The notes: generated from the letters alone by a model not told the origin. Positions 7,325 to 41,905 are shown, counted from the first letter of the stretch. The stretch is 43,419 bases of DNA from Fidelibacterota bacterium (GCA_028719225.1 JAQUKI010000001.1:1-43419), one strand, 5' to 3'. A program made the numbers and translations.

Positions 7325-7501
7325 TTTATCTCCAAAATTGTGCCGGTTTGATATCGAGTCAAGATACTCGAGGAGTAATCTATGAATTCTTTTGAGCGCG
7401 AAACCTGAAGTAATTTTTTCCTTAAGATTACCGGAACCATCCAATTGCTCCTACGATACTCATCAACTCATAAAGTTATCAAAAGATATTAAGACTTTGT
7501 A

Positions 7502-7596: not shown

Positions 7597-8676
7597 TTAA
7601 TAAATTCCTAATTCTTTCGCCAGATTGATGATTTTTTCAAAATCCAGCAAACTGACAGATGAGGGCACCGAATGATCGGATGAAAAAATATATCCGCCAT
7701 CCTCTTTTAAAATCGGTACAAGTCGTTTCATCTCCGCCATAATCTGCTCCGGATCGTTCCAAAGAACAGCATTGATGCCGCCGTGCAAAACAAGGTCTTT
7801 CCCATATTCTTTCTTTAAAAAGAGTGGATCCATTCCCGCCTTGACTTCGAGCGGATTCAGCGCATCCAATCCCATAGAAATCAATTCCGGAACGAACGGA
7901 TTGATGTCGCCGCAGGAATGCAAATGTGCCTTGATTCCCTTCGCATGCGCCCAATCAATTGCTCTTTGATGAAATGGTTTGAGTAGATTTCGGTACATTT
8001 TCAGCGAAAAAAACTGGCTGTTTTTGTAGCCCATATCATCCGGCCACCAAATGCTATCGAAGTGATAACCCGCATCCCAAACCATGTCCAGCAAAGTCAG
8101 ATTGACTTCCAGCAAGTGACCGAACATATCGCGGCACCAATTCGGATTCTCGACTAAAGCAAATAAAAACCGTTCCGTTCCGACGATCCATGAATGAGTC
8201 ACATCAAATCCAAACCATAGATCGGCGCAAATCCAGTTGCCTTTTTCGCGCCACCGTTGAAAATCTTGCTCCAGTTCTTTCCAACTGATACGAATCGGAT
8301 CGGGTGTAATTTGCTCTTTCGCACGTTGCCATGACGCGGGATCGACGATAGTAAAATTCAGAAACTCCGGCGTGGAATTCTGCCAGAGCCATTCTTTTTG
8401 TGTTGCGCCCCATTTCGTTGTGTAAATTTTGTATTGCTCAGTTACTTCTATGGTTTGCTCAGGATAACACGGAGAATTGTCAACCTTGATATGTTCGACA
8501 CGGTCTATTCCAAAGAAATCAATCCAGTTAGTATCTTTCGGCAAACCCTCTTTTTCCCAGCGGGTGAGAGTGGCTTTCCATGGAGTGTCGATAATTGGAA
8601 TACGGTCGGCATGACGATGTTCGAACATACGTAAAAATCTTTCTCGGCTGGTCATTTCATCCATCCTGATCCTCAT
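7597..8676 (-). CDS. Uroporphyrinogen-decarboxylase (URO-D)/MtaA-like family protein.
   Basis: 359 aa. N-terminus ERFLRMFEHRHADRIPI and HLHSCGD (His-x-Cys motif of MtaA/MtbA-type Zn methyltransferases) are typical of the URO-D superfamily. The start is ambiguous among three ATGs at 8676, 8664 and 8655. Confidence 0.75.
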   Translation of the reverse strand: MRIRMDEMTSRERFLRMFEHRHADRIPIIDTPWKATLTRWEKEGLPKDTNWIDFFGIDRVEHIKVDNSPCYPEQTIEVTEQYKIYTTKWGATQKEWLWQNSTPEFLNFTIVDPASWQRAKEQITPDPIRISWKELEQDFQRWREKGNWICADLWFGFDVTHSWIVGTERFLFALVENPNWCRDMFGHLLEVNLTLLDMVWDAGYHFDSIWWPDDMGYKNSQFFSLKMYRNLLKPFHQRAIDWAHAKGIKAHLHSCGDINPFVPELISMGLDALNPLEVKAGMDPLFLKKEYGKDLVLHGGINAVLWNDPEQIMAEMKRLVPILKEDGGYIFSSDHSVPSSVSLLDFEKIINLAKELGIY

Positions 8677-8804
8677 TCTATCTTTTCCAAATCATTGATT
8701 ACAACAGTACAAACCATAACAAAACATTTTTTAATAAATCATATGTAATGACAATATAGAGCAACATTTGAATAAAATGAAGATGTTTTTCGTCGTCATG
8801 ACTA

Positions 8805-8833
8805 TTTACAGATAGATGAATAAACGGTAAGTT
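8805..8833 (+). promoter_or_regulatory. Candidate sigma70-type promoter for the 8858 operon.
   Basis: TTTACA, a 17-nt spacer, then TAAGTT, about 25 nt upstream of the AAGGAG Shine-Dalgarno site and ATG. Pattern match only. Confidence 0.35.
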
Positions 8834-8857
8834 TGTGTTGTTTATTAAGGAGAAGAA

Positions 8858-10246
8858 ATGAACGGAAAAGAACTGGTACTGAATGCAATCCAAAACGAAG
8901 CAACACCGCGAGCGCCGTGGGTTCCATTTGTTGGTTGTCATGGCGGAAAACTCATCGGCAAACCGGCTGACCGTTATCTACAATCCGGACAGTTGCTTGC
9001 CTCTGGTTTAAAAAAAGCGTTCAATTTGTATCAACCGGATGGTTTACCGATCATTTTCGATCTTCAGATCGAGGCCGAAGCGCTGGGTTGCGCTCTTCAT
9101 TGGGCAGAAGACACTCCACCGGCTGTTATTTCACATCCTTTGGATTCGCAGAACAGGAAAACTCTCGCTAATCTTAATCACTTCGATACAAATCTCGGCC
9201 GTTACCCGGAAATCGCCATGGCACTGAAAATGATTAAAAAGGATTTGGGAAACGACATCGCCATTTACGGCTTGATTTGCGGTCCGTTCACACTGGCTCT
9301 GCATTTGCGCGGCAATGAAATTTTTCTCGACATGTTCGATCATCCGGAAAAAGTGACTAATTTGCTTTCATTCTGCACGGAAATTGGACGAAAAGCGAGC
9401 GATTTCTACATTGAAAACGGAGCGGACATTGTCGCGGTTGTCGATCCGATGACCAGCCAAATCTCACCAACACATTTCCATCAGTTCGTTTCACCGGCGG
9501 TGAATTCCATTTTTAATCACATTCGTGAAAAGAAAAGCCTATCTTCTCTTTTCGTTTGCGGCAACGTTGACCGGAATCTCGAATGTATGTGCGAGACTTC
9601 GTGCGATAACGTTTCAGTTGACGAACAAATCTCGATCCCCAAACTCAAAACGCTGGCGGAAAAACACGGAAAATCCTTCGGCGGGAATCTCAAACTGACC
9701 GTCACACTGCTAATGGGCGATGAAAACGACTGTCGGTTAGATGCGATCCGGAACCTCGATGAGGGCGGCAGGAAGGGCTTCATTCTTTCACCCGGTTGCG
9801 ACCTGCCGTATTATGTCCCGGAGAAAAACCTGCAAGCCGTCGCCGAAATGGTTCATGATGAATATCAGCGTGAATTTCGCCGGAAAACCTTGTCTGTAAA
9901 AACGCAAAATTTCGACCATATTTCCCTGCCGGATTATCAAAACAGCGATACGGTCATTATCGATGTTGTCACTTTGGATTCGACATCTTGCGCACCGTGC
10001 CAGTACATGGTCGAAGCCGTATATAAAGCGCTTGACGGATTGAATGTCAATGCTATCATACACGAACATAAAATAAAGACAGAAAATGGCGTCGGTATGA
10101 TGATCAAACTCGGCGTTACCGGCATTCCGACGATTTGCATCGATGGCGAAGTCAAATTTTCGTCGATTATCCCCGATCAGCCGACATTGAAAGCAGCGAT
10201 TCAAAACGCCGCTGACCTGAAAAAACGAACGACTCCTCGCAAATGA
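8858..10246 (+). CDS. URO-D/MtaA-like domain fused to a C-terminal thioredoxin-like (CxxC) domain.
   Basis: The N-terminal ~340 aa is URO-D-like (DLQIEAEALGC, GPFTLA, FVCGN, LSPGCDL). The C-terminal ~95 aa (from ~9950) carries CAPC (9989-10000) and GIPTICIDGEVKF, like small thioredoxin/glutaredoxin-like redox-active disulfide proteins. Strong AAGGAG Shine-Dalgarno site. Confidence 0.75.
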   Translation: MNGKELVLNAIQNEATPRAPWVPFVGCHGGKLIGKPADRYLQSGQLLASGLKKAFNLYQPDGLPIIFDLQIEAEALGCALHWAEDTPPAVISHPLDSQNRKTLANLNHFDTNLGRYPEIAMALKMIKKDLGNDIAIYGLICGPFTLALHLRGNEIFLDMFDHPEKVTNLLSFCTEIGRKASDFYIENGADIVAVVDPMTSQISPTHFHQFVSPAVNSIFNHIREKKSLSSLFVCGNVDRNLECMCETSCDNVSVDEQISIPKLKTLAEKHGKSFGGNLKLTVTLLMGDENDCRLDAIRNLDEGGRKGFILSPGCDLPYYVPEKNLQAVAEMVHDEYQREFRRKTLSVKTQNFDHISLPDYQNSDTVIIDVVTLDSTSCAPCQYMVEAVYKALDGLNVNAIIHEHKIKTENGVGMMIKLGVTGIPTICIDGEVKFSSIIPDQPTLKAAIQNAADLKKRTTPRK

Positions 10247-11139
10247 TCCCGATCTGTCTCATCACCGGTTTTCTCGGGAGCGGCAAGACAACCCTACTGA
10301 AAAATTTTATTTGGGAAAATCGTAATCGGCGAATCGTTTATATCGTTAATGAATTCACGCCAGTAGATGTCGACGGTGAATCGATCCGAAGCAAAACCGA
10401 CGACGTCATTTCGATTCCCGGCGGTTCGATTTTCTGTAAATGTCTTGTCACGCGGTTCATTGACCTGCTGAAACAGATTCCGGAACGTTTCTCTATTGAC
10501 GGACAAGAGATCGAAGGCGTCGTTATCGAAGCAAGCGGAATTGCCGATCCGCGAGTTGTTCGGCAACTTCTTCGCGAGACACATCTCGATAAACAATTCT
10601 TCGTCAGCCAAATCATTGCCATTGCCGATCCATTTACATTGCCGAAATTACTTCTAACTCTTCCGAACATTCGCTTTCAGATCGAAGCCGCAGATACAAT
10701 CCTGATCAACAAGACCGATTTGGCATCGCCCGACGCTGTGAGGCAAACCGAAGCGCTCATTCATGAAATCAATCCCGACACGCCATGTATCCGAACAACA
10801 TTTTGCCACTGTGAAATCGACCTCTTGAACACGGAACCATCAGGTCGCGAAACAGCGGGCACGCTGGAGAATTGTAGCAATCCAAACTTTTCCAGAATCT
10901 ATATTCCGAACCCGGAAATATCTGTTGAAAAACTGAAGTCGGCCGTTTTACCGATTTCGGATGCGATTTACCGGCTCAAAGGATTTTTACAGACGGATGA
11001 CTGTATGGTTTCTGTCGATTTCTCCGGCTCGGGCTGGCAGATTGAAAAAGCGCCGAAGCATATTCAAAATCCCGGACTTGCAATCATCTACCGCCCGGAA
11101 GATCAAATAAAAATTCAGACAATATTCACCAAACAGTAA
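10243..11139 (+). CDS. COG0523 (CobW/ZigA/YjiA-like) G3E-family GTPase metallochaperone.
   Basis: Walker A GFLGSGKTT, G4 motif NKTD, and a CKC in place of the canonical CxCC. The ATGA start/stop overlap with the upstream gene suggests translational coupling. Confidence 0.85.
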   Translation: MIPICLITGFLGSGKTTLLKNFIWENRNRRIVYIVNEFTPVDVDGESIRSKTDDVISIPGGSIFCKCLVTRFIDLLKQIPERFSIDGQEIEGVVIEASGIADPRVVRQLLRETHLDKQFFVSQIIAIADPFTLPKLLLTLPNIRFQIEAADTILINKTDLASPDAVRQTEALIHEINPDTPCIRTTFCHCEIDLLNTEPSGRETAGTLENCSNPNFSRIYIPNPEISVEKLKSAVLPISDAIYRLKGFLQTDDCMVSVDFSGSGWQIEKAPKHIQNPGLAIIYRPEDQIKIQTIFTKQ

Positions 11140-11154
11140 GTTTGACCGGCTTTT

Positions 11155-12177
11155 TTATCGCAATAAAACACTAAGATTTCTTGTTAAGACGGGGACACTT
11201 TCCTGTGCTTGCGTCGGTCCGAAATTGCTCAACTTTCGCGCAAGTGTTTTCAGTAATGCTTCATCGACTTTCCCGGACAATATTCTCTCGGTTTCTTCTT
11301 CGGTGACATCTTCCAACCGCCCGGCTAATTTCATCACAGCCGCGTTGTGCGGGCATTCTCGCTGACATTTCATACATCCCATCAGCGCGTTGTGGGCGTC
11401 CGGATTCATCCAGTCGGGAAATTCTCCGGAAATTTCATTATAAAGCGTCACACATCGTCCGGCATTGATCACAAAATTCTCGTCTGTAATGCATTGATTG
11501 GGACAACGGCTCCGGCAAATGCGGCAGGTTTTACAGGATTCCATCATCGCGACTTCGCGCCAGTTGTCTTCCTGAAACTCAAAATCCGTATAAAAACCAT
11601 AGAGCGCCAAAAAACTGCCGAACTCATCATCATAAGTGATATTGTTTCGTCCGTAAGTCGTCAATCCGCTCCGAACAGAAAGCCGTTTGTAAAACGTATT
11701 TCTGGCAATTTCCATCCGAAAACCGGGCTTTAGGATGATCTCGCGCTGGACCGTTTCTTTAATCTCATCCATCGTGTAGTCGCCTCCCGAATATTGCGGT
11801 GAAACCATGATTTCGTGCTTCTTTCCGCGATAATGAAAATTGACCAGCATGAGCGGCGTGAAAATCGCGACGAGGATAATAAACTTAGCGTCGGAGAAAT
11901 CCGCCGGAACGACAAATTTACGGTTGGCGACATAACTCTGAAACGTCGGATTGTCGCTCAATTTTCCCGTTTTCTTCAGTTGATCGATGTCATCCTGAAG
12001 TTCGGGAAGATGCTTCACCGACATCGTTCTGTATTTATATCGAAATTTCGCCGCATTCGGATTTGCCTGATCTGAAGATTTTCCAGCCAGCAATTTGCCC
12101 GGCCGGACGGCAAACGCACAACCACCAATTGTCAGCAACCTTAGAAAATCCCGGCGCGAGAGTGTCGATGAGTCCAT
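11155..12177 (-). CDS. Tat-signal Fe-S protein related to epoxyqueuosine reductase (QueG) / reductive dehalogenase.
   Basis: Start trimmed to ATG 12177 (AAGGAG Shine-Dalgarno site). Twin-arginine motif SRRDFLRLL. Cluster motifs CKTCRICRSRCP (C-x2-C-x2-C-x3-CP) and C...CMKCQRECP. The family call comes from motif layout only. Confidence 0.6.
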   Translation of the reverse strand: MDSSTLSRRDFLRLLTIGGCAFAVRPGKLLAGKSSDQANPNAAKFRYKYRTMSVKHLPELQDDIDQLKKTGKLSDNPTFQSYVANRKFVVPADFSDAKFIILVAIFTPLMLVNFHYRGKKHEIMVSPQYSGGDYTMDEIKETVQREIILKPGFRMEIARNTFYKRLSVRSGLTTYGRNNITYDDEFGSFLALYGFYTDFEFQEDNWREVAMMESCKTCRICRSRCPNQCITDENFVINAGRCVTLYNEISGEFPDWMNPDAHNALMGCMKCQRECPHNAAVMKLAGRLEDVTEEETERILSGKVDEALLKTLARKLSNFGPTQAQESVPVLTRNLSVLLR

Positions 12178-12202
12178 AATATTCTCCTTTTTCACTAATA
12201 TA

Positions 12203-12231
12203 AAAATAGCGACGACGGGCGCTCCTTCCAA
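12203..12231 (-). promoter_or_regulatory. Candidate sigma70-type promoter for the Fe-S protein gene.
   Basis: The reverse strand reads TTGGAA, a 17-nt spacer, then TATTTT. It lies inside the rejected N-terminal extension of the ORF, which supports the 12177 start. Confidence 0.35.
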
Positions 12232-17266: not shown

Positions 17267-19773
17267 ATGAAAAAAATATTAACGTATTTTACAGGAATTA
17301 TTTTGTTGTCGGCAATTACTACAGCCGCTGATCTGTCCGTCATACCGACACCACAAAGCGTCCATTTCCAGCCGGAATCGTTCGGTTTTACCGAACTCAA
17401 TTCGGTTCAGATCGTTTTGGGCGATAGCATCACAGCGGATGACGAAGGCGTTAAAATTCTCCGCGAAGCCATCGTCAATTCATTCGGAATTCAAACAAAC
17501 GTTGTCCAGACCGGTGATAACTCCGCGCTGGCATCTATTAACCTCGTTATCGCTTCATCTGATACCGGCGCAAACAAAATATCCGCTTATGAATTTACGC
17601 CGGAAATGACGGAAGAGGGCTATTTTCTCGACATTTTGCCGAACAAGATCACCATCGCGGCAAAGAATCCGACCGGTTTGTTCTATGGAATGATGACGCT
17701 GACACAGATGATCCGCTCCGCCGAAAAAGGAAAAATTCCCTGCGTTCTCATCAAAGATTTTCCGTCGATGAAATGGCGCGGCGTCTCGGATGATTTCAGC
17801 CGCGGGCAAGTTTCAACGATGGACAATTTCAAGCAAATTATCCGCTTTCTGGCCGAAGACAAGATCAACGTGTTCATTCCGTACATGGAAGACGTCATTC
17901 AGCTGGAAAAATATCCGGACATCGGCGTCGGGCGCGGCGCACTTTCCAAAGATGAAATCCGCGAGATTAGGCGTATGCCAAACGACTTCACGTCCAGATC
18001 GTTCCGGTGTTTCAGACGCTCGGCCATTTTGAAAATATTCTCACGATGCCGAACTACGAAAAATTCGCCGAATATCCCGGCGCGGGTTCGCTGAATTCAA
18101 CAAATCCCGAATCGGATAAATTTCTGTTCGATCTGCTCGACGAGGTGATTCCACTGTTTGAATCGGAATATTTCCACATCGGAGCCGACGAATCGTGGGA
18201 TGTCGGTCTGGGCGCTAATCGCGATCTGGTGGCAAAAGACGGCATTTCAAAAATCCACGCACGGCATTATCAAAAAGTGTACGACAAGGTAAAATCCTAC
18301 GGGAAAAACGTGATGATGTACGGCGACATTATCCTGCATCATCCCGACATCCTCAATCAAATTCCAAAAGACATTATCATCGTCGATTGGCACTATTCGG
18401 CGACCGATAATTATCCATCGGTCAAACAATTCGCCGACTCCGGATTTCAGGTCATCGTTTCGCCGGGAATTCAAAATTGGCTGAATGTGATCCCGAATTA
18501 CGACGCCGCGTGGATCAACATTTCCAACATTAATCTCGAAGGCTACAAGATGAAGGCGCTCGGTTCCATCAACTCGACGTGGGGCGATTACGGCGGGCCG
18601 AATTTTCGGGAATGGAATTATCTCGGTTATGCCTATGGCGCGGAGTCTTCGTGGAATACGCCGGGCATGAATGGAGAAACGATTAACCAACGGTTTTTTA
18701 AACAGTTTTTCGGATGCGAGGATTCCCGGCTGTCATCGCTTCTAATTCATTTGAACGAAATCCCGAACCTGACAAATTACAAGGAAATCTTTCGCCAGCC
18801 GTTTTTCCAAACGGATGAATCCGCCGGAAAAATCCTGCTCCGTAGCCGCCAACTCATAGAAAACGGGAACGCCGCGTTGGTACTGATTGATGAACTCCGT
18901 CGGATCGTTAAAACGAATGTCTATTATCTCGATTACTATGAATTCGCCGCAAAAATGAGCGTTTTTATGGGCGATCGCCTGAAATTCACGCGCGACATCA
19001 GCCGGATCGGCATGCTCAAATTGGAATCGACGTTAACCGAGGATGAATGGAATCTTCTTCAGCAAAATTGCTCGGCGCTGATCGAAGGCCTGAACGATCT
19101 GGAGCATTCGTTCAAATCGCTCTGGCTGAGGACGAACCGGCCGGACAATCTTTCACGCGTGCTCAACCTGTTCCGCGTTCAGATGGCCTACCTTGAATCG
19201 GCGCAGGAAAATCTGGCCGCGCATTCGGTTCAGATTCCGACGACGCTCTCCTCAAAATTTATCACCGCAAAACAGAATCCCGATTCCGAAAAGCCTGCGC
19301 CGGCGTTTCTCCGGAAAACATTCGAACTCGAGCGGCTTCACGGTTTAAAAAGCGCCAACCTGCAAATGATTGCCAATTCAGAGGCGAATATTTCCATCAA
19401 CGGTAAATCCGTCGGTCGGATCACGGCGACGAAATCGCTTTCGCTGCTCGTCGAAAATCAGCGCATCGGCTGGTGGGACGTGCTTGACAAATTAGAAAAA
19501 GGAAAGAACATCATCACCGTTGCAGTTCAAGGTTACAAGCCGAAAATGCCTTCGACGGCCAATGTCTATCTCGAACTCCAGTTTGAGGATGGCCAAACGA
19601 TGATCATTCAATCCGACGGGACGTGGGAATCCGCGACGCAAGTCAAAGACGGCTGGCAACTGGCACGCGATTCCGGCGGAAAGTGGAACAATGCTCTGAT
19701 TTTCGATAAATATCCGTGGCGGATTTCCGCTCCGATGTTCGGGAAAGGATTTGCCTCGCAGATCGAGTTTTAA
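17267..19773 (+). pseudogene. GH20 beta-N-acetylhexosaminidase with a C-terminal galactose-binding-like domain, interrupted by a 1-nt frameshift near 17969.
   Basis: ORFs 17267-18094 and 18007-19773 are two halves of one gene. The first has a signal peptide plus IPTPQSV and FPSMKWRG. The second frame reads AYAKRLHVQIVPVFQTLGHFE...HIGADE (GH20 catalytic pair). Only 2 nt (17969-17970) lie between EI(17963-17968) and AYAK(17971-). Confidence 0.7.
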
Positions 19774-19844: not shown

Positions 19845-22553
19845 TTATTTGACCATCGTCATCCGTTTGACTTTTGTAACATTGCCGTTTTTCACAGCAT
19901 ACAAATAAACACCTGTGGACATTGCCGAACCATTCCGATCTAAACCATTCCACGTAATCGTATAAGTTCCGGTTGACAATTTCTTGTTGACCAGCGTAAC
20001 AACTTCTTTTCCCAGCAAGTCGTAAATCGTCAACGTAACAACCTTTTCGCTTGGAACGTCAAAAACGATGTTCGTCGTGGCGTTGAACGGATTCGGATAA
20101 TTCTGTTGCAAACGGAAGTTATCCAAACTGGTGATATGATTCGAACCGGGATCAATTGCCGATCCGGCACTCTGATTTGTATAACGGGCAACATTTCCCT
20201 GATATGTAAAGAAATAACCAAAATCGTTATCCGCGACTACAGCGCCTAGGAAATCATTACCAGACAATGCAGAGGCAACGGGAACCGGTGTCCATGAATC
20301 ACCCAGATTATCCGTGTAGAAAACTTCGCCATAATCACAAAATGCCATAATCCGACTGGTGCCGGGAACAGCAACAACCGCGTTGACCCAACCATCAGCG
20401 GAAACCGGTGAACTGACAAGGTCCCAGGTTTCGCCGCCGTCTGTAGTAACAAATGGAACGCCATCGATTGAGCTATCGTCGCCGCCATTGATACCGACAG
20501 CCATACCATCAGAATCGCTCGTGAAAGTTATTCCACGGATTACTTTTGCACAACCGGTCGGGACCTCAAAACTTTCCCAATTAACACCGGCATCATACGA
20601 CCGATAAACATAGGCTGTGTCTGAAGAAGATGTTGTGCCGGTAAACCAAACCGACTCGCCATTATTCCAGACAGCGGTGCCCCATGAATAGATCGCCTGA
20701 GACGCTGACATATAATCAACACCGGTTATTTCAGTCCAGGTTGCGCCCTTATCTATAGACCGTGCGAAATAGAGATCGCCATTAGCCGCGCCGTCACCCA
20801 AAGCAACTGCAACACTGTCATTCAGAACCCTGATTCCATCGAACCAGCCGGCGCCACTGAAGACCGGATCGGCCAGATAGGTGTGTACAAGAGTCCAATC
20901 CTGGCCGCCGTTTGTTGTTCTATAGATTTCACCAACAGCAGTAGCAACAACAGCGATATTGGCATCGAAGGCATCTACCTGTGCCGCACGCCCGGGAATA
21001 GCCGTAGTATTGTGTGTAAACGTTTTGCCACCATCAGTGGAACGGAAAACATAGGTCACTTTGTTGGTACCGTCCACGCCGCAAAACCAGATGACATTGC
21101 CATTATTCAGAGCGCGACCCGGTTTGAACAATATACCGCTGGGAGCCGCTCCGTTGAATAATACTTCGGGAGCTACGATCAGACTATCTGCACCACTCGA
21201 AGTAACCGTAGCATCGAGAATTACGATTGGTGCGGATCCCTCAGCCGTGAAAACATCCGGAGCGTATGAAGTACTGGATGTATATAAAACTTCTGCCTCG
21301 GGATCGTCATCGATATTGGCAATATTCAGAACCGACCAAACACCGGTTGCTTCCGTCGCCGAATAGAGCGAATCGATCAGCATCAGTTCATAATTCGCCG
21401 GATTTGTAATGTCACCGCCTTTATAAGAAACGCAGGTGATCAAACCGTTCGGAGTTGCATCGCGTGAACCAAATATGAAATCGAGATAGCCGTCGCCATC
21501 AATATCGCCACTTGCACCACCCCATGGGCCGCGCGCTCCTGTCGGCCAATATGCCGAGAGATTAAACAACTCTGTCGCTTTTAATGTATCGGCAACTTCC
21601 TGTAGGAGATAAACTCCCTTTTTCGTATCATCGCCCCAATCATAAACGGCGCAAACGATTTCTTTCGTACCGTCTTTGTCCAAATCGACACCCTTTGCAG
21701 ATTGAACCGGCGCGCCACCGGCCAAAGGACTTAGCGCGGTGTAACTCCATCCGCTATTAAAAGATAATTTCGAGATTTCTGTCTCCGAGAAAAAATAGGC
21801 GTTGTTTCCAGTGACGGCAACATCCCATTTATTTTGAACCGTGGAGGTCATACTCCAATCTTTTCCGCTGGCTTCCAGCGTCCAGGTTTCCGAACCATCT
21901 GCATTATCCGGAATATTGCTTACAGAACAAACCCCGACATAATAACCACCGTTGTTACCTGCCCGATCGGCGAAAATTACCTCGGTCGTTCCATCTCCGT
22001 CAATATCAACCGCTTCAGCGTCGATTGGACGGATATTGATACTTTGTTCAGTGGTAATTGTCCATGTCGAGTTCGGCTTATAGCCGCCGGCGCCGTCATC
22101 GACCCCAAGGATATCACCGGTTCCCTGTTCATAAACCGCAATCCGAACGGGGTTGGTGGAAACGGAAAAAGCATTAACCGGCATCCAGGTTATTTCTTCT
22201 TTCTGATCGTTATCCAGATCTGTCAGTAGAAGCGCCGGCCACGTGTTCTGGTAAGCCGGATCGAGTTTGGCCTGCCATACTATATCCCAGTTCGCGCCAT
22301 TTTTTTCCAATTTGTAAATGCGCGGAATAACTTCGCTGGCACCGTCATTCCAATTATCATTTACCAGATAGATTTCGGTTTTTCCATCTTTGTCCAAATC
22401 GACACCGGAAATGATGCCCCCAATACCGCCATTGTTCAATGTGGCTTCGGGAATGTCGATCACACCACTGCGGGTGAAACCGGTTATCCCGGCGAAGCTG
22501 AAAGAAAACAGCGTCAGGACTAACACGCTAAAAATCGTAACAACTTTCTTCAT
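19845..22553 (-). CDS. T9SS cargo protein with FG-GAP/VCBS-like repeats, a BNR/Asp-box propeller and a type-A CTD (payload gene of cassette 2).
   Basis: AGGAGG Shine-Dalgarno site. About six DxDxDG repeats (VDIDGDGTTEV, GDIDGDGYLDF...). Six Asp-box repeats (STDGGKTFT, TTNGGQDWT, SIDKGATWT, SYDAGVNWE, TTDGGETWD, LGDSWT). Canonical CTD QNYPNPFNATTNIVF...LTIYDLLGKEV...STGVYLY. Confidence 0.8.
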   Translation of the reverse strand: MKKVVTIFSVLVLTLFSFSFAGITGFTRSGVIDIPEATLNNGGIGGIISGVDLDKDGKTEIYLVNDNWNDGASEVIPRIYKLEKNGANWDIVWQAKLDPAYQNTWPALLLTDLDNDQKEEITWMPVNAFSVSTNPVRIAVYEQGTGDILGVDDGAGGYKPNSTWTITTEQSINIRPIDAEAVDIDGDGTTEVIFADRAGNNGGYYVGVCSVSNIPDNADGSETWTLEASGKDWSMTSTVQNKWDVAVTGNNAYFFSETEISKLSFNSGWSYTALSPLAGGAPVQSAKGVDLDKDGTKEIVCAVYDWGDDTKKGVYLLQEVADTLKATELFNLSAYWPTGARGPWGGASGDIDGDGYLDFIFGSRDATPNGLITCVSYKGGDITNPANYELMLIDSLYSATEATGVWSVLNIANIDDDPEAEVLYTSSTSYAPDVFTAEGSAPIVILDATVTSSGADSLIVAPEVLFNGAAPSGILFKPGRALNNGNVIWFCGVDGTNKVTYVFRSTDGGKTFTHNTTAIPGRAAQVDAFDANIAVVATAVGEIYRTTNGGQDWTLVHTYLADPVFSGAGWFDGIRVLNDSVAVALGDGAANGDLYFARSIDKGATWTEITGVDYMSASQAIYSWGTAVWNNGESVWFTGTTSSSDTAYVYRSYDAGVNWESFEVPTGCAKVIRGITFTSDSDGMAVGINGGDDSSIDGVPFVTTDGGETWDLVSSPVSADGWVNAVVAVPGTSRIMAFCDYGEVFYTDNLGDSWTPVPVASALSGNDFLGAVVADNDFGYFFTYQGNVARYTNQSAGSAIDPGSNHITSLDNFRLQQNYPNPFNATTNIVFDVPSEKVVTLTIYDLLGKEVVTLVNKKLSTGTYTITWNGLDRNGSAMSTGVYLYAVKNGNVTKVKRMTMVK

Positions 22554-22599: not shown

Positions 22600-23613
22600 T
22601 CAAAAAGAAACTCCGAGAGATACTCGGTGAGCGCCTTTTAGTGCGCCCAGATCGGAGTAAGCATAATCTGCGTTAATTCCCAAAGCATTTCCCAACCCAA
22701 GCCGAACTCCGGCGCCAAATGTCAAACCGGCTTCATCCGTATTAATTTTGTAACCGCCGCGCAGGCTGAACATCTTCAGAAACGAATATTCGAGACCAAG
22801 ATTATATTGCTCGAGATTATTGTTCGGATGAATCATGTCCGCCGCGACCATGACTGTATGGTTAGTTTTTTCAAGCAGGTTCATACTGATTCCAAAGCGG
22901 AAATTCACCGGCAGGGAGTAGGTTTCATATTTTTTTTCTTTATTAGCGTTCTCAGAATCACTGTAATCCCAGTAAGTACCACTGAACCGAACTTCCGGAG
23001 CGAAGTGCAGAATTGACATACCGAGTCTCAATCCATGAAAATTGGTTCGGTAAACCGTACCCAAATCCATCGCCCATGTCGAATAACCATGACCATAGTA
23101 ATCTTCATGTACTAGCTTGGTGGTCAAACCAACCGAAACGCGATCAGTCAGAAAACGGGCGTAGGTCAAACCGATAGCATAATTGGTCAGGTTGAACATT
23201 TCGCCATTGCCTTCCGGCGTTTCGATTGTGGTAACCTCCATGTCATCCGTCATCAGGTAGACGCCGCTGATAGCGAGGGTTCCAATTCGTCCAAGTTTCA
23301 TCGAATAAGCGAGACCGGCGAATGTAATGTCGGCCGGCCACTTATTATAAGAGCTGAACAAATTGCGATCATTGGCATCTACTAATCCGGCAGGATTCCA
23401 GAAGACAGCGCTGGCATCGTTCGCGACAACGGTAAAGGCTTCGCCCATGCCAGCCGCGCGGGCGCCAACGCCGATTTCCAGAAATTGGGCTACCGATGTG
23501 CCAACCGGAGCAAATTCTGCGGCAAAACTAACCGGCAAAATCAACAGGATGATTATCAGGGATACAGGAAGTATATTTTTGCGCATTGTTCTATTTTCCT
23601 CTCTGATTAGCAT
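22600..23613 (-). CDS. PorV/PorQ-family-like outer-membrane beta-barrel protein (cassette 2).
   Basis: Motifs LEIGVGARAAGMGEAFT and FWNPAGL, with a terminal Phe (LGVSF). The start may instead be ATG 23586 (MRKNILPV...SFA|A). Paralog of 519-1463. Confidence 0.7.
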   Translation of the reverse strand: MLIREENRTMRKNILPVSLIIILLILPVSFAAEFAPVGTSVAQFLEIGVGARAAGMGEAFTVVANDASAVFWNPAGLVDANDRNLFSSYNKWPADITFAGLAYSMKLGRIGTLAISGVYLMTDDMEVTTIETPEGNGEMFNLTNYAIGLTYARFLTDRVSVGLTTKLVHEDYYGHGYSTWAMDLGTVYRTNFHGLRLGMSILHFAPEVRFSGTYWDYSDSENANKEKKYETYSLPVNFRFGISMNLLEKTNHTVMVAADMIHPNNNLEQYNLGLEYSFLKMFSLRGGYKINTDEAGLTFGAGVRLGLGNALGINADYAYSDLGALKGAHRVSLGVSF

Positions 23614-23614
23614 G

Positions 23615-25636
23615 TTAACGAACGATCACAAATTTGCCGATTATCTCGCCTAAAGTAGGCGATTTGACCACATACATGTAAATCCCCGGCGCGGCTTCCT
23701 GATTATTACGGGTCATCAGATCCCACTCGGCCACACTGGCCGCATTCGGGCTAACTTCCTCGCCGACAACTACGGTGCTGTTGGCTTTCGTTTCTGCCAC
23801 ATAATCTCCGTCGAGTGTAAAGATCTGAATCGTTGCATCGGCGGGCAGATTTGTAAATTGCAGACGATGTTCCCATGCAAATGAATCGCTCGGCGTGCGG
23901 TTATTCCAGCTGGCACTTCCCAAATAAGGATTCGGCACAACCTTGACGTTTTTAAGCGTTTGAGTTGCAACCGGATTGGCGGGTGAAATGATATTGGCAT
24001 TTTTTCCAGTATAGATTACCCCAATCGGCTCCGGGATTTCTTCTGTGAAAGCCTGAACGGCGTAATAGTAAACCAATCCCTTGATAATATCTTCATCTAT
24101 GTAACAATATTTTCCATCGTCATCAACGGGCGGTGGCCAGGTAGCGCTTCCGACCGTATCGGTATATGTTGCCAGCGTAGTCCACTCAACCGAGCCGCTA
24201 CTGGATTTTTGTCCTTTTGAAAGCACATAACCTTGAAATTTTGGATGTGTTGTTGAGTTAGCATCCCATTTGACGAAGACACCTTTGGTTACATTATCTT
24301 CGACTTTTTGTTGTAATTCCACGACAGGCGTAGAGGGTGGTTCAAGAGCGGCAATATCGTAGTCGACATCAACAATAAATTGGGCAATTTTCATACTCTT
24401 GACAAGCTTCACCAAACTGTAAACACCGCCACTGTCAAAATCACAACCAATACCCAAAGCGGTCGTGACCACAACCGAATCACCGGGTGGCAATGAATCC
24501 AGCGGCCCGAATGTAAGAATTCCGCGGAAATCATAAGCATACGGCAGGCCGGTGGTAGGATTGGAAAAAATATCTTCAAAAATCGGACTGCTAATCATTC
24601 GCGACCAGGTTAGTGCATCTGAAGTCGGATCGTTATAAATCTGGCAAACGTGAAACGAACTCGGTTTCAACTCTGGAACGCTCTTTAGTACTTTAATACC
24701 AATAAAGCCTGGCGTTTGCAGTTTTCCATCGGCACTCATGTTGCCGAAATCATTTGCCTGACCATTTTCCGCCGTATAACTGGGATTATCACCATCGAAC
24801 ATGATGATCATATGGCTGTCGGCATCGGCGGATGTCAGACCATGGTCACGTCCTGCCATCCGACTTTTATTGTCGTTCGGGTCTGCCGGATCAGCGAACT
24901 TTTCGATCCAGTCCCACTGACTGTTCGACATGGCATGGTCATCGATATTACAATATTTCGACTCGGCATCCCATTGCGGTAATTTGGACACATCACCGTC
25001 AAAGCGGATCGTAAAGTAAAAATCCTTTAAACCCCGCGGAGTGTCGGGCAGCCCATCGCCGTTGGTATCGATTCCAACATTCTTAATCGTATACTCATAA
25101 ATGATGAAATCCGCCGCATAACTGGCGGACCAGGCGTATGTACGTTCCTGAACTTCCAGCCCGAGCGGAAAATGGGTTCCCGAAGCCAACGGCGCCGTTA
25201 CATCGTAATATTTTGTGTAGGTATCTTCTTCGGATCGAGCATTTGTGCTGGTATCGACATGCACTGAGTCCAGAGCAGAAAATTCATGATCGTCGCCTTG
25301 CGTGGAGTGAAAAGTTCCGTCCACAAAAGCCGACAACCAGAGCGTTCCGCGATAAAGGTAAGAATTCCCGGAGCCGCCCGGATAATCGCCGGAAGGTGTG
25401 CGATTGGTATAGGAATCATCACCCATGTAACTGTAATTAGAGCAACGGTTCCAGATATTGCCGATTTTATGCCACTTGTAGTTATCATCTACAATCGGGC
25501 TTTGTGCTGAAAGAGAAATTTTCGACAATCTGGTCGGTTTCTTGGCTTGATCTGCGGCTATCGCAAAGTTAAAAATGAACAGACCGATCAATAAAATCTT
25601 GATAATGTTTTTCATCTTTTTTAAATATTGATTCAT
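23615..25636 (-). CDS. Uncharacterised secreted protein with an FN3-like module and a divergent T9SS CTD (cassette 2).
   Basis: GGAGG Shine-Dalgarno site and a signal peptide. Shares YPGG, ...RTYAWS.../...RTSKAWS..., an FN3-like block (VFVKWD...GYVLSKG...YYYAVQA) and the CTD-like end (VVPNPY...TIQIFTLDGDYV...APGIYMYVV...FVIVR) with 1474-3348. Confidence 0.7.
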   Translation of the reverse strand: MNQYLKKMKNIIKILLIGLFIFNFAIAADQAKKPTRLSKISLSAQSPIVDDNYKWHKIGNIWNRCSNYSYMGDDSYTNRTPSGDYPGGSGNSYLYRGTLWLSAFVDGTFHSTQGDDHEFSALDSVHVDTSTNARSEEDTYTKYYDVTAPLASGTHFPLGLEVQERTYAWSASYAADFIIYEYTIKNVGIDTNGDGLPDTPRGLKDFYFTIRFDGDVSKLPQWDAESKYCNIDDHAMSNSQWDWIEKFADPADPNDNKSRMAGRDHGLTSADADSHMIIMFDGDNPSYTAENGQANDFGNMSADGKLQTPGFIGIKVLKSVPELKPSSFHVCQIYNDPTSDALTWSRMISSPIFEDIFSNPTTGLPYAYDFRGILTFGPLDSLPPGDSVVVTTALGIGCDFDSGGVYSLVKLVKSMKIAQFIVDVDYDIAALEPPSTPVVELQQKVEDNVTKGVFVKWDANSTTHPKFQGYVLSKGQKSSSGSVEWTTLATYTDTVGSATWPPPVDDDGKYCYIDEDIIKGLVYYYAVQAFTEEIPEPIGVIYTGKNANIISPANPVATQTLKNVKVVPNPYLGSASWNNRTPSDSFAWEHRLQFTNLPADATIQIFTLDGDYVAETKANSTVVVGEEVSPNAASVAEWDLMTRNNQEAAPGIYMYVVKSPTLGEIIGKFVIVR

Positions 25637-31827: not shown

Positions 31828-32190
31828 ATGGAATTCCAAAAAGACAAAGCGATATATCTTCAAATCGCGGACTATATCTGTGAGAATATTCTTTCGAAAA
31901 AGTGGGTGGAAAACGACAGGATTCCATCCGTGCGGGAACTCGCAATCGAACTGGAGGTCAATCCCAATACGGTTATGCGAACCGTAACGTTTCTTCAGGA
32001 GAAAGGCATTATTTTCAATCAGCGGGGAATCGGTTATTTCGTCGCCACCAACAGTTACGAGAATACGCTCAACCTGAAAAAATCGGATTTTATCCAGTCC
32101 GAATTGCCACGAATCTTCAAAACGATGCGTTTGCTGGGACTTAGCCTGGACGACATTCAGCAATATGCAATTCAACCTGAAAATAATTAG
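31828..32190 (+). CDS. GntR-family regulator, YtrA subfamily (short effector domain).
   Basis: 120 aa. IYLQIADYI...RIPSVRELAIELEVNPNTVMRTVTFLQEKGIIFNQRGIGYFV is the classic YtrA-type wHTH. Confidence 0.85.
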   Translation: MEFQKDKAIYLQIADYICENILSKKWVENDRIPSVRELAIELEVNPNTVMRTVTFLQEKGIIFNQRGIGYFVATNSYENTLNLKKSDFIQSELPRIFKTMRLLGLSLDDIQQYAIQPENN

Positions 32191-32200
32191 AGAGGACGTC

Positions 32201-32905
32201 ATGAAAACAAGCAATAAAATTCTCATCATCACTATTTCCCTGATTCTATTATTCGTCGCCGGCATGATAATCGTCAGCCGCTTTGCCATTGAACGCGAAT
32301 ATACCGAAACTGATAATGAGTTTCGTTCGGCGGAGACCGAATTGATCGAGCATAATCTCAAAGATTTTACCGAAGTCAGCGTCTCCGGTAACTGGGACAT
32401 AACCATCGTCCGTAACGACACATTTCGGGTTCAGGTTTTCTATCCAAAAGAGACAGATGATAAATTAACGGTCACTAAACATGGTTCAAAACTCGAACTG
32501 ATTTCTATGGGTGATTTTCACAATCATCACGACCAATTCAGGGCTGAGATTCACATGCCGAAGTTGTCGAAAATTCAATCCGAACTGGCGTCAAAGATCC
32601 GGTTCGATGGATTCAAATCGCCGAACCTCGATCTGCGGATCGAGGGCGCCGGATGGATTACCGGCGGTGATAACGTCATCGAAAATCTCGATCTGTCCAT
32701 AGATGGCGCTTCTCAGGTCGATCTTAAATTCAGCGCGGTCACTAATGTCGATTTGAATATGAACGGAGCGGGAAAAGTGCGCCTCAATATGGCTGGCGGT
32801 AAATTGACCGGCACGGCAAACGGCGCGGGCTCTATCACTTATACCGGAAACGTTTCGGAACAGGATGTTCAGACAAACGGAGCTGTCACGATTCACAAAC
32901 GTTAA
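32201..32905 (+). CDS. Membrane-anchored DUF2807/GIN-domain-like beta-helix protein.
   Basis: Start at ATG 32201 and an N-terminal TM helix. Repetitive LDLRIEGAG..., LDLSIDGASQVDL..., VDLNMNGAGKVRLN...GTANGAGSITYTG pattern, typical of the putative auto-transporter adhesin head GIN domain. Confidence 0.55.
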   Translation: MKTSNKILIITISLILLFVAGMIIVSRFAIEREYTETDNEFRSAETELIEHNLKDFTEVSVSGNWDITIVRNDTFRVQVFYPKETDDKLTVTKHGSKLELISMGDFHNHHDQFRAEIHMPKLSKIQSELASKIRFDGFKSPNLDLRIEGAGWITGGDNVIENLDLSIDGASQVDLKFSAVTNVDLNMNGAGKVRLNMAGGKLTGTANGAGSITYTGNVSEQDVQTNGAVTIHKR

Positions 32906-40131: not shown

Positions 40132-41052
40132 GTGAAAAAAGTTTATCCTGTATTTTTTATCTTCATGCTTTTGCTCGCCAATTGTTCGACGCATTCGTTC
40201 AATTTCGACGGCGAGAAAGCATATCAATATCTCCAGCAACAATGCGATCTTGGCGTGCGGAATCCCGGTTCGACGGGGCACAATGCCGCAAAAGAACTCA
40301 TCACGAAAACGGTCTCACCGCTCGCCGATACAGTCGTATTTCAAGAATTTGAATCATACGTCGATTCCGAGAAAGTCACGTTAAAACTTACCAATATCGT
40401 CGCCGGATTTGCGACAAAGAAAGGCAACCCGCTTCTCATCGGCGCGCACTTCGACACCCGGCCGCGCGCAGACCGCGATCCCAATCCGCTGAACCGCGAA
40501 TTTCCCATTATTGGCGCGAACGACGGCGCCAGCGGCGTGGCGGTTCTTCTGCATCTGGCTGAACTCCTCAACCAGAATCCACCGCCGCGAACAGTCTATC
40601 TGGTTTTCTTCGACGGAGAAGATTACGGCTTTTCCGGAACGCTCGATTACTACTGTATCGGCTCGGAGTATTTCGCGAAAAATCTGCCGATCCCAAAGCC
40701 TGTCGAAGCGATCGTCGTCGATATGATCGGCGATGCCGACCTTTCAATACCCGTCGAACGCAATTCCTACCGTAGTCATCCAAAACTCACGAAGCAGTTG
40801 GGAGATATTGCCCGCAAACGCGGATTCAATCAATTCGAACACCGGTTGGGCGAGGAAATTTACGACGATCATCTCATGCTGATCCAATATGCCGGTATTC
40901 CGTCCGTGGATTTGATCGATTTCGAGTATCCGAACAAATCGACCAATTACTGGCACACAACGCTCGACACGCCGGACAAATGCAGCGCGAAAAGTCTTCG
41001 GGTTATCGGTCAGGTGCTTTGCGATTATATCTATGGAGAGAATGAAGAATAA
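40132..41052 (+). CDS. M28-fold zinc protein, glutaminyl-peptide cyclotransferase-like lipoprotein.
   Basis: GTG start 1 nt after the sprA stop. Lipobox LLLANC. AHFDTR, GANDGASGVAVLLHLAE, FFDGEDYG, VDMIGD. The C-terminal IPSVDLIDF...YWHTTLDTPD resembles the IP..HLI...WHT..D motif of animal-type/Bacteroidetes QCs. M28 aminopeptidase is not excluded. Confidence 0.6.
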   Translation: MKKVYPVFFIFMLLLANCSTHSFNFDGEKAYQYLQQQCDLGVRNPGSTGHNAAKELITKTVSPLADTVVFQEFESYVDSEKVTLKLTNIVAGFATKKGNPLLIGAHFDTRPRADRDPNPLNREFPIIGANDGASGVAVLLHLAELLNQNPPPRTVYLVFFDGEDYGFSGTLDYYCIGSEYFAKNLPIPKPVEAIVVDMIGDADLSIPVERNSYRSHPKLTKQLGDIARKRGFNQFEHRLGEEIYDDHLMLIQYAGIPSVDLIDFEYPNKSTNYWHTTLDTPDKCSAKSLRVIGQVLCDYIYGENEE

Positions 41053-41905
41053 TTCCGACATAAAGAGCGAACCGGCAAAAAAACCCTGGAAAAAGATCGT
41101 CTTCAGCCGAAATGTATGCGACGAAGAGCTTCTGCTGGCTCTCCTGGGTGCAAATGATAATGTAGCCACGCTGGAATTCGGAGATCGGATCGAAGCCATT
41201 TTCCCGATTGAAGAGCGCGAGCGGCTATTTGAATCGTTCGAACCGTTCGCCGAAAAACTTCATCTTGCCGGCGCGATCCTTTCCGAAGGCGACATCGCGG
41301 ATGAAAACTGGCGACTGAACTGGCAGAAGTATTATCGACGGATCGATCTGGAAAACGGAATCAGTATTCGCCCTTACTGGGTAGCGCCGAAACCGGACGC
41401 TGAATTGGAAATCGCCATTAAACCCGGCATGGCATTCGGCACCGGCACGCATGAAACGACACAGTTAGCCCTTCTTTTCCTAAAAAAATATCTCCGACGC
41501 GGAATGACCGTTCTCGATGCCGGTTGCGGCAACGGAATCCTGTCGATTGCCGCTTTAAAACTCGGCGCCGCATCCGTCGATTGCCGGGACATCGATCCGG
41601 ATGTTGAGGAAAATTTCCATGAACAAATGACACTGAACCAAATCTCCGGAAATTTCTCGTTTCAAGTCAGCGACGCAACCGACCTGAAATCGTATGATTA
41701 CGATCTCATTCTGAGCAATATCGAACGGAAACCGAATTTGCACCTTCTGCAATCGGCGGCCGAGAATTATACGCATGCGTTGATCATCTTTACGGGAATT
41801 CTGACAGATGAATATACGATATTTGCCGACGCCGTGCTAAATTACGGGCGAGAAGTCGTTGAGACGATGACTAAAAGTGAATGGATTGCAATCGTGGTGA
41901 AATAA
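41033..41905 (+). CDS. prmA: Ribosomal protein L11 methyltransferase.
   Basis: PGMAFGTGTHETTQLAL and VLDAGCGNGILSIAALKLGA are PrmA/SAM-binding motifs. The start is 41033 or 41042; either overlaps the upstream stop. Confidence 0.88.
   Translation: MERMKNNSDIKSEPAKKPWKKIVFSRNVCDEELLLALLGANDNVATLEFGDRIEAIFPIEERERLFESFEPFAEKLHLAGAILSEGDIADENWRLNWQKYYRRIDLENGISIRPYWVAPKPDAELEIAIKPGMAFGTGTHETTQLALLFLKKYLRRGMTVLDAGCGNGILSIAALKLGAASVDCRDIDPDVEENFHEQMTLNQISGNFSFQVSDATDLKSYDYDLILSNIERKPNLHLLQSAAENYTHALIIFTGILTDEYTIFADAVLNYGREVVETMTKSEWIAIVVK

Follow-up and report, generated by a model that had tools for sequence, protein, structure and literature searches.

The locus described here raises the question of how a protein that occupies the gene position of SusD, and lacks the lipid anchor of SusD, could serve a TonB-dependent transporter (TBDT) at the bacterial surface. 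It lies on a 43,419-nucleotide stretch of DNA from a Fidelibacterota bacterium (GCA_028719225.1 JAQUKI010000001.1:1-43419), called the window below. The gene under study (23615-25636) encodes a 673-aa protein, X1, and a second gene (1474-3348) encodes a 624-aa paralog, X2. Both open reading frames (ORFs) are found as a first-pass annotation, made from the sequence alone, had placed them, and both lie on the minus strand, which that annotation had left unstated. It had also described X as the middle gene of both cassettes, in the position of SusD, and this holds in the window and in essentially every related locus, where X directly follows a TBDT of CarboxypepD_reg-Plug-barrel architecture. We find that a single large, unannotated family of putative cell-surface proteins includes X1 and X2 as two of its subfamilies, and that its members form a three-gene outer-membrane module with the TBDT and a dedicated barrel. 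On sequence comparison and structure prediction we propose, with evenly balanced confidence, that X would be exported through a type IX secretion system (T9SS), kept on a PorQ-like barrel of its own by an uncleaved C-terminal domain (CTD), and positioned to capture substrate for the TBDT.

Two paralogs in two cassettes

The X1 protein is identical to MDD5764637.1, a "hypothetical protein PHW79_00100" from a Candidatus Marinimicrobia (Neomarinimicrobiota) metagenome-assembled genome (MAG), and the best match of X2 in the protein collection has 86% identity, with none at 100%. The description of the family as uncharacterised is upheld, X1 having no Pfam match and database homologs being all labelled "hypothetical" or occasionally "T9SS C-terminal target domain-containing". 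Pairwise BLASTP aligns only residues 408-673 of X1 with 378-624 of X2 (29% identity, E = 3e-20) and does not detect similarity between the N-terminal regions. We used subfamily alignments of 28 X1-type (A1) and 26 X2-type sequences (A2), together with an alignment of 54 family members (A3); residue numbers given here are those of the true ORFs, and the alignments and the X1 structural model, which lack Met1, are numbered one lower. Compared by hhalign, A1 and A2 match over their whole length with a probability of 99.9% (E = 8.7e-35, 519 columns). The shared N-terminal region that had been claimed from landmarks is borne out at this profile level: the N-regions alone match at 98% (216 columns, E = 2.3e-13; the control with reversed sequence gives E = 0.087), and each half of the N-domain is significant by itself (E = 4e-11 and 3e-6). 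The FN3 region alone gives E = 3e-7 and the CTD alone E = 1.5e-18. As judged from these profile comparisons, the paralogy is real over the whole length and far above chance.

All the landmarks from which the relationship had first been recognised are present and mutually aligned in the profile-profile alignment. GDYPGGSG (X1 84-91) falls on MDWPGGP (X2 68-74), VQERTYAWS on VKRTSKAWS, and KDFYFT on TDAYFG; further along, EPPSTP of X1 aligns with PPPSPE of X2 and VKWD with ISWD, YYYAV being found in both. In the CTD, VVPNPY aligns with VFPNPF, and the landmark of the NLP strand, FTNLPADATIQIFT in X1 and WTNLPAICTIRIYT in X2, shares the pattern NLP...TI(Q/R)I(F/Y)T.

X1 and X2 carry signal peptides of the Sec type without a lipobox Cys, in keeping with the earlier expectation of an anchor unlike that of SusD. 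In X1, A28 and D29, just after the predicted cleavage site, are invariant or nearly so in orthologs. The first residue of X2 after the predicted signal-peptidase site, Gln30 (3259-3261), is invariant in 26 of 26 aligned orthologs, and the corresponding position of X1 is an invariant Asp (in A/AD). An N-terminal Gln cyclised to pyroglutamate is typical of secreted and T9SS proteins of Bacteroidota.

A conserved three-gene order

Homologs with 50-85% identity to X1 or X2 occur in Marinimicrobia/Fidelibacterota, KSB1, Calditrichota, Ignavibacteria/Melioribacteraceae, Rhodothermales and Bacteroidota MAGs, and one cultured carrier is Caldithrix abyssi DSM 13497 (Calab_1557, WP_006928247). A profile search of 1.84 billion cluster representatives (clusters at 50% identity) returned 8,305 matches at E<1e-3, 3,647 at E<1e-10 and 679 at E<1e-30. 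The matched proteins are in many cases 800-1,260 aa long, the best-scoring matched stretch being the C-terminal module, and Pfam recognised no domain in 9 of 10 remote relatives.

In 77 loci (L001-L077), ORFs were labelled by phmmer with the window proteins. The order TBDT, X, PorV/Q-like barrel, on one strand and with tiny gaps, recurs in nearly every one of them where the contig allows, and the subtypes of the three genes co-vary: TBDTs and barrels of the cassette A type always accompany X2-type proteins, and those of the cassette B type accompany X1-type proteins. Among six remote superfamily members (868-1262 aa), the barrel lies directly downstream in all five testable cases, and the upstream neighbour is a TBDT in four, an ExbB-ExbD-ExbD-TonB set in one and neither in one. 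Because the barrel adjoins X even in remote relatives without a TBDT, it is the constant partner of the X CTD, with the TBDT/TonB system as the usual third partner. In the case with the ExbB-ExbD-ExbD-TonB set (L083, 1006-6839), a 940-aa member directly follows that set and precedes a PorV-like barrel, with no TBDT between; on gene order, this arrangement is a second, independent genomic link of the X family to TonB-dependent transport.

The wider neighbourhoods differ between the two types. X2-type loci hold ABC sugar permeases, GntR-type regulators and, among the proteins that bear CTDs, a GH38-like mannosidase (T9SS CTD, 10 loci) and DUF4185/DUF5005 proteins; a homolog of the cassette A regulator stands upstream of the X2-type locus L069, and a GntR/UTRA-type regulator is found in L002. 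Such a gene content hints at a glycan locus resembling a polysaccharide utilization locus (PUL). In X1-type loci the barrel is followed by a propeller protein of 880-900 aa with a CTD (39 loci) or, in Calditrichota, by an M28 peptidase with a CTD instead (9 loci). Some Calditrichota loci (L001, 1-4757; also L040, L045-L047 and L055) carry a second, divergently transcribed TBDT of ~1060 aa beside the X1 module, followed by a 312-aa protein with no NCBIfam match and then by a 710-aa protein; the latter has the same length as P0257, a family member picked up in the search of cluster representatives. No description of a TBDT/CTD-protein/PorV-like module was found in the literature searched, the coverage of which was partial and is not proof of novelty, and the Caldithrix and Melioribacter genome papers do not mention the module.

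A lengthened CTD close to those of PorZ and PorU

The AlphaFold2 (AF2) model of X1 (predicted local distance difference test, pLDDT, 80.3; predicted template-modelling score, pTM, 0.73) comprises an all-beta N-domain (~45-403), a long helix, a beta-sandwich (~432-549) and a C-terminal 7-stranded sandwich (~562-673), the strands of the last spanning residues 564-670. An FN3-like module followed by a type-A-like CTD with an insertion, as previously described, is thus seen in the AF2 model and also by Foldseek, hhalign and alignment. Tandem FN3 domains are the top Foldseek matches of the middle module (E = 6e-6), and its FN3 profile matches are weak (E = 0.08).

The assignment of the C-terminus as a T9SS CTD stood in part. 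X1 has no match to TIGR04183 or PF18962, and X2 remains below both cut-offs (18.3 bits against 23 and 14.3 bits against 27, respectively). Profile methods nevertheless uncover the homology: with the family CTD as one profile and 81 canonical type A CTDs of genes nearby as the other, hhalign gives a probability of 93.9% (E = 1.5e-7, strands 3-7; reversed control, E = 0.0016), and on this comparison the X C-terminus is clearly homologous to, and derived from, type A CTDs. Motifs B, D and E, as defined in PMC11969387, are kept in X1 as VVPNPY, APGIYMYVV and GKFVIVR, together with FTNLP; GKFVIVR includes a Lys near the C-terminus, a residue of CTDs discussed in PMC10994853.

Among the 54 aligned members, C-termini match PorZ in 27 (best E = 1.4e-9) and PorU in 22 (best E = 1.6e-7); TIGR04183 is matched by 20 at E<0.01 (best 7e-6), PF18962 weakly by 14, and CHU_C by weak, sub-threshold matches in 19 (best E = 0.0035). 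The X2 C-terminus itself matches those of PorZ and PorU at E = 3.5e-5, and the corresponding matches of X1 are weak. Only the last 70-100 residues are matched on the PorZ and PorU equivalog models, with 14-22 bits where the cut-offs are 260 and 420. Among T9SS proteins, PorZ and PorU are precisely the two that keep an uncleaved CTD, bound to PorQ and PorV, respectively (PMC10202324).

The X1 CTD is also unusually long, at ~112 residues compared with 69-82 for normal "long" CTDs (PMC11969387). The extra length comes from the insertion between the PNP(Y/F) and NLP strands, which had been noted earlier and maps to residues 571-590, plus in X1 a second insertion at 618-634. The first forms a low-pLDDT loop with many invariant residues and 73% identity among orthologs (conservation was computed over orthologs from 17 related loci and the window); an insertion at this strand 1/strand 2 position recurs throughout the superfamily, and the canonical CTD of the 902-aa neighbour encoded in cassette B has none. 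With 72% identity, the CTD is the most conserved of all X1 domains, ahead of the N-domain core (65%) and the FN3 domain (51%), the whole protein standing at 63%. The same comparison for the 902-aa neighbour gives the reverse order, 49% for its canonical CTD and 54% for its passenger, and the PorV- and SprA-contacting surface of ordinary type A CTDs is poorly conserved (Lauber et al. 2024, PMC10994853). Conservation of this kind is unlike that of a discarded generic signal, and a permanent, specific interface would fit it; the pattern argues, at the level of sequence, against removal of the CTD by PorU.

These data bear directly on the alternative that survives best, in which X is ordinary T9SS cargo: the barrel would be a private export shuttle, the CTD would be cleaved, and X would be lipopolysaccharide (LPS)-attached or released, working as a binding protein that is free or only loosely associated with the surface, with no physical coupling to the TBDT. 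The type A motifs and the homology to canonical CTDs speak for such a fate, as do the cognate shuttles known to be required for secretion of type B cargo (PMC12618676) and the normal role of PorV, which usually hands cargo over to the sortase (PMC10202324). It is nonetheless unlikely in our judgement, since a discarded signal would hardly be the best-conserved domain of the protein, above the whole-protein average where the neighbour's CTD falls below its own passenger, since the conserved insertions and linker favour a lasting interaction, and since in NCBIfam the CTD matches those of PorZ and PorU, which are retained, better than it matches the generic model.

Fold of the N-terminal region

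The N-terminal ~400 residues had been described as unassignable to any known domain. This remains true of profile searches: Pfam finds no N-domain family in X1, X2 or any of the 54 aligned members, returning weak CTD-type matches only, NCBIfam has no match for the domain, and no glycoside hydrolase (GH), polysaccharide lyase (PL) or peptidase hidden Markov model (HMM) is matched. Searches of PDB sequences by phmmer with X1 and X2 and by hmmsearch with the family profile gave nothing, or marginal FN3 matches only. The fold, on the other hand, can now be assigned. Foldseek against the PDB relates the X1 N-domain to the N-terminal super-sandwich of GH94 phosphorylases, GH116 and dextran dextrinase. 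The X2 N-domain, modelled alone (pTM 0.79), finds the same targets more strongly, with cellodextrin, cellobiose and laminaribiose phosphorylases at E = 3.9e-8 to 1e-5 and TMq of 0.35-0.42; further matches of X2 include GH161, GH116, GH65, GH63, a polysaccharide lyase, copper amine oxidase and the YidC P1 domain. At the level of fold only, the models thus suggest a galactose-mutarotase-like super-sandwich, as found in the non-catalytic N-domains of GH94, GH116 and GH65 enzymes. With TM-scores in this range, ~10% identity and no HMM match, the N-region has no confident match to a characterised family.

The most conserved segment of X1 as a whole, with the motif NWKWHKIG..GDDxYxNRTPSxDYPGGSGNSYLYRG (residues 45-100; 25337-25504), has 74% identity among orthologs, and its equivalent in X2 (residues 30-85; 3094-3261) is likewise the best-conserved stretch of that subfamily. 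Four Asp (D84, D233, D281 and D296 in X1), three Trp (W62, W169 and W241), one Tyr and one Asn are invariant in the N-domains of both subfamilies, and some super-sandwich proteins are enzymes, galactose mutarotase being an example. These two points, along with the location of X among secreted hydrolases, could be taken to mean that X is an enzyme of a new family, for instance a glycan-cleaving or glycan-modifying one, whose catalytic N-domain makes oligomers for the TBDT, a function compatible with anchoring on the barrel. We hold this to be improbable: the matched GH94, GH116 and GH65 domains are non-catalytic, the catalytic (alpha/alpha)6 barrel of those enzymes is absent from the X model, the HMM searches place X in no GH, PL or peptidase family, and the SusD-like position together with co-conserved, dedicated hydrolase genes fits a binding role better.

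The partner barrels and the transporters

Both barrels exceed the cut-off of the PorV/PorQ family model NF033709 (90 bits), with 222.8 bits for cassette B and 169.1 bits for cassette A, and both stay below the equivalog cut-offs for PorV and PorQ (57-90 bits, where 220 and 250 are required) and for PorV2, scoring slightly higher on the PorQ than on the PorV model. The closest solved structure to the cassette B barrel is Flavobacterium johnsoniae PorV (6h3i_F, E = 8e-6), and one barrel reaches 14.1 bits on the PorP_SprF model, against 22.3. We rejected the idea that either is the housekeeping PorV, as the window has two divergent copies, each co-varying with its X subtype and each sub-equivalog. 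The TBDTs are not SusC equivalogs either, at 68-72 bits against the SusC/RagA threshold of 368.

On the minus strand, cassette B reads, from 5' to 3', TBDT, X1, PorV/PorQ-family barrel and 902-aa propeller protein, and cassette A reads GntR/FCD regulator, TBDT, X2 and PorV/PorQ-family barrel, reaching the contig end. Intergenic gaps are 1-46 bp, with 30 bp between TBDT and X1 and 13 bp between TBDT and X2. The longest ORF of the cassette A barrel runs 92 nt into the end of X2; its true start is likely Met35 (nt 1463), which would yield a normal signal peptide (MKKLLLPLFIISVLAG) and a 10-nt gap to X2. The CTD of the 902-aa protein is above the curated cut-offs (45.9 bits on TIGR04183, 35.1 bits on PF18962); a PorZ homolog was considered for this protein and rejected, no PorZ match being found outside the CTD. 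The window encodes SprA/Sov (TIGR04189, 857 bits), which establishes the presence of a T9SS in the genome.

That X and its barrel instead serve envelope biogenesis as an accessory pair akin to PorZ-PorQ, bringing a surface polysaccharide or LPS to an attachment machine and having no part in nutrient uptake, would account for PorZ being the best CTD match (27 of 54 members), the slightly better PorQ score of the barrel and the sugar-associated fold of the N-domain, but is highly improbable in view of the two divergent copies in the window and the many subfamilies per genome, the tight linkage of X to TBDTs, TonB-ExbBD, ABC sugar permeases, regulators and hydrolases, and a passenger with no similarity to the PorZ beta-propellers.

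A model for surface capture and its weak points

Our proposal of a T9SS-exported capture protein on a private barrel can be laid out as a sequence of steps. Its signal peptide would take X across the inner membrane by the Sec pathway, and the lengthened type-A-like CTD would then direct it through the SprA translocon. Synteny and CTD conservation suggest that the CTD is not cut by the sortase and stays on the extracellular loops of the cognate downstream barrel, much as PorZ does on PorQ, PorU on PorV and type B cargo on PorP/SprF-like barrels. That the PorV/PorQ-family barrel is the most constant neighbour of X points to non-covalent anchoring on a private barrel, in the manner of PorZ and PorQ, rather than to cleavage and attachment to anionic LPS (A-LPS). 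A review has proposed that cognate PorV-like barrels protect CTDs from cleavage (PMC10202324), and proteins with type B CTDs are tethered to genetically linked PorP/SprF-like barrels (PMC9143113; PMC12618676). The barrel would anchor X beside the co-encoded TBDT, the FN3-like domain acting as a spacer; judging from fold, gene position and neighbours, the super-sandwich N-domain would bind an extracellular substrate, most likely a glycan, and pass it to the TBDT, a role corresponding to that of SusD and surface glycan-binding proteins in the PULs of Bacteroidota. Neighbouring T9SS-secreted hydrolases may supply the fragments for import, namely the GH38-like mannosidase and DUF4185 proteins in X2-type loci and the propeller protein or M28 peptidase in X1-type loci.

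Several observations weigh against this proposal. One remote locus, L066, is the single clear exception to the gene order, neither partner being present, and 2 of the 6 remote relatives lack a neighbouring TBDT. Agreement of the N-domain with its structural matches is moderate (TMq 0.35-0.42, root-mean-square deviation 8-16 Å, ~10% identity), and the super-sandwich of GH enzymes is a structural or oligomerisation-related element and no proven lectin. The conserved N-terminal motif is poorly modelled in both X1 and X2 (pLDDT <50 in part); low-confidence modelling combined with top conservation is as expected of a ligand or partner site not ordered alone, and the models leave room for the motif to be a ligand- or partner-binding element that may be ordered only in complex. 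The CTD falls below the curated TIGR04183 and PF18962 thresholds, and its retention on the barrel is argued from conservation and gene linkage only. Transient binding to PorV, followed by cleavage, is also the course taken by ordinary type A cargo, and according to Paillat et al. 2025 (PMC12618676) the general PorV serves every type A CTD known.

A bolder formulation, to which we give somewhat less than even confidence, is that the module represents a SusD-independent uptake machine of the outer membrane, spread over multiple phyla, in which a T9SS-exported beta-sandwich protein, sitting permanently on a private PorQ-like barrel via a specialised uncleaved CTD, would be the substrate-capturing arm or lid of the TBDT. 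The CTD would then constitute a third class of T9SS signal, derived from type A, bearing conserved insertions and always paired with its own PorV/PorQ-family barrel, and the family would hold a large, unexplored reserve of surface binding proteins, numbering no fewer than 3,600 clusters (50% identity, E<1e-10).

Organic matter is broken down by the Marinimicrobia, Calditrichota, KSB1 and Ignavibacteria, abundant groups in which polymer capture at the surface is poorly understood; they have a T9SS and many TBDTs, yet the X cassettes contain no SusD. If the proposal is true, the module would show a coupling of secretion (T9SS) to uptake (TBDT) and a non-lipoprotein way to build a transporter-associated binding protein, and would add a large new class to type B cargo and PorZ/PorU as proteins anchored on cognate barrels. 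Thousands of hypothetical proteins would gain a function, and the gene triplet could serve as a marker when PUL-like loci are sought beyond the classical Bacteroidota. The Calab_1557 gene of the cultured Caldithrix abyssi DSM 13497 makes the idea directly testable.

Remaining genes of the window

The features of the two cassettes and of the T9SS translocon are collected in Table 1.

Table 1. Coordinates of the X1 and X2 genes, their domains and associated genes, counted from the first letter of the window
Feature	Coordinates	Strand	Basis
X1, target gene, 673 aa	23615-25636	minus	ORF; signal peptide, super-sandwich N-domain, helix, FN3-like domain, long T9SS-like CTD
X1 Sec signal peptide, residues 1-27 (...FNFAIA, followed by AD)	25556-25636	minus	Sequence reading; N-terminal helix in AF2 model
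X1 N-terminal beta-super-sandwich domain (predicted), ~residues 45-403	24428-25504	minus	AF2, Foldseek, hhalign to X2 N-domain
X1 long helix and linker, ~residues 404-431	24344-24427	minus	AF2: helix 403-422 (model numbering)
X1 FN3-like domain, ~residues 432-549	23990-24343	minus	AF2 beta-sandwich, Foldseek, hhalign
X1 linker ISPANPVAT and divergent long type-A-like T9SS CTD, residues 550-673	23618-23989	minus	hhalign, motifs
X1 CTD insertion, strand 1/strand 2, residues 571-590, YLGSASWNNRTPSDSFAWEH	23867-23926	minus	Alignment, AF2
X2, paralog, 624 aa	1474-3348	minus	ORF, hhalign, AF2 of N-domain
X2 signal peptide, residues 1-29 (..PLQA, followed by QR)	3262-3348	minus	Sequence reading
X2 N-domain and helix, residues 30-401	2146-3261	minus	
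X2 FN3-like domain, residues 402-528	1765-2145	minus	
X2 CTD, residues 529-624	1477-1764	minus	
Cassette B TBDT, 938 aa	25667-28483	minus	Pfam/NCBIfam: CarboxypepD_reg, Plug, beta-barrel
Cassette B PorV/PorQ-family outer-membrane barrel, 337 aa, abutting X1	22600-23613	minus	NF033709, synteny
Cassette B fourth gene, 902 aa, FG-GAP and BNR/Ycf48-like propellers with canonical T9SS type A CTD	19845-22553	minus	
Cassette A TBDT, 1076 aa	3362-6592	minus	Pfam/NCBIfam; synteny with X2-type loci
Cassette A PorV/PorQ-family barrel	519-1565 (longest ORF)	minus	NF033709, synteny
GntR/FCD-family regulator, upstream of cassette A	6617-7444	minus	Pfam
SprA/Sov T9SS outer-membrane translocon, 2113 aa	33789-40130	plus	TIGR04189, 857 bits (cut-off 200); PF14349

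Convergent with the end of cassette B, a GH20 beta-hexosaminidase is split into two overlapping plus-strand ORFs (17267-18094 and 18007-19773), the first holding the GH20b domain and the second a catalytic domain that starts only at profile position 125; the split is probably a frameshift, a sequencing error or a pseudogene. Beside cassette A (7597-12231) stand two URO-D/MtaA-CmuA-like methyltransferases, one on the minus strand (7597-8676) and one on the plus strand fused to a thioredoxin-like domain (8858-10246), with a CobW GTPase (10243-11139) and a minus-strand 4Fe-4S protein (11155-12231); this group may be a corrinoid-dependent methyl-transfer or demethylation set. Next after SprA come an M28-family peptidase-like gene (40132-41052), which lacks a CTD, and then PrmA (41033-41905). 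Two plus-strand genes encode putative surface proteins, one with a DUF2807 adhesin-head domain (32165-32905) and the other with a "choice-of-anchor X" domain as well as a weakly matching Kre9/KNH Ig-like tail (41906-42973). An Rfam scan of the window found no RNA family, and a scan for sigma-70 promoters and terminators was indistinguishable from shuffled sequence and uninformative on operon limits.

Likenesses to known surface systems

The closest functional parallel is with SusD/RagB. X is encoded immediately after a TBDT with an N-terminal CarboxypepD_reg-like domain, its loci contain regulators, inner-membrane sugar transporters and secreted hydrolases, and X is predicted to be a surface-exposed, non-catalytic, substrate-binding partner. 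The two are nevertheless unrelated in sequence and fold, SusD being helical and resembling tetratricopeptide repeats whereas X is all-beta (super-sandwich, FN3, CTD); X has no SusD Pfam match and is not a lipoprotein, its TBDT lies below the SusC/RagA threshold, and its export and anchoring are predicted to run through the T9SS and a private barrel. By analogy, X would work like SusD without being a member of that family, and on the functional half of this statement, taken within our proposal, we see the case as poised midway.

In its anchoring, X recalls the PorZ-PorQ and PorU-PorV pairs, in that a type A-like CTD would be kept and held at the surface by a 14-stranded barrel of the PorV/PorQ family, the best database matches of the X CTD being the C-termini of PorZ and PorU and the partner barrel meeting the PorV/PorQ family model. 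Here, however, the passenger is unrelated, with neither beta-propellers nor a C25-like peptidase, X is not a PorZ or PorU equivalog nor the barrel a PorQ, PorV or PorV2 equivalog, and the X-barrel pair is genetically linked, multi-copy and tied to a TBDT, with conserved insertions in the CTD. Type B CTDs with PorP/SprF barrels (SprB-SprF, PG1035-PorP) likewise combine a specialised CTD with a genetically linked barrel needed for secretion and surface anchorage, but the X CTD is type-A-like with sub-threshold CHU_C matches, its barrel is of the PorV/PorQ and not the PorP/SprF family, and the X module is tied not to adhesins or gliding but to TonB-dependent uptake. The picture of general PorV use (PMC12618676) would be extended by a type-A-like CTD that has a PorV/Q paralog of its own, genetically linked to it.

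The remaining parallels are structural. The super-sandwich N-domain of GH94, GH116, GH65 and GH15-type enzymes is the best structural match of both paralogs (Foldseek E = 3.9e-8 to 1e-4), but at ~10% identity, with no HMM match and no (alpha/alpha)6 domain, the X domain standing alone on an FN3 stalk. In BamG-BamH, from the BAM complex of Bacteroidota, a surface-exposed protein sits on the extracellular loops of a 14-stranded barrel of FadL/PorV-like type (PMC12578637), as would be expected for X on its own barrel; the process there is outer-membrane protein assembly, and the likeness is drawn from arrangement and not from homology.

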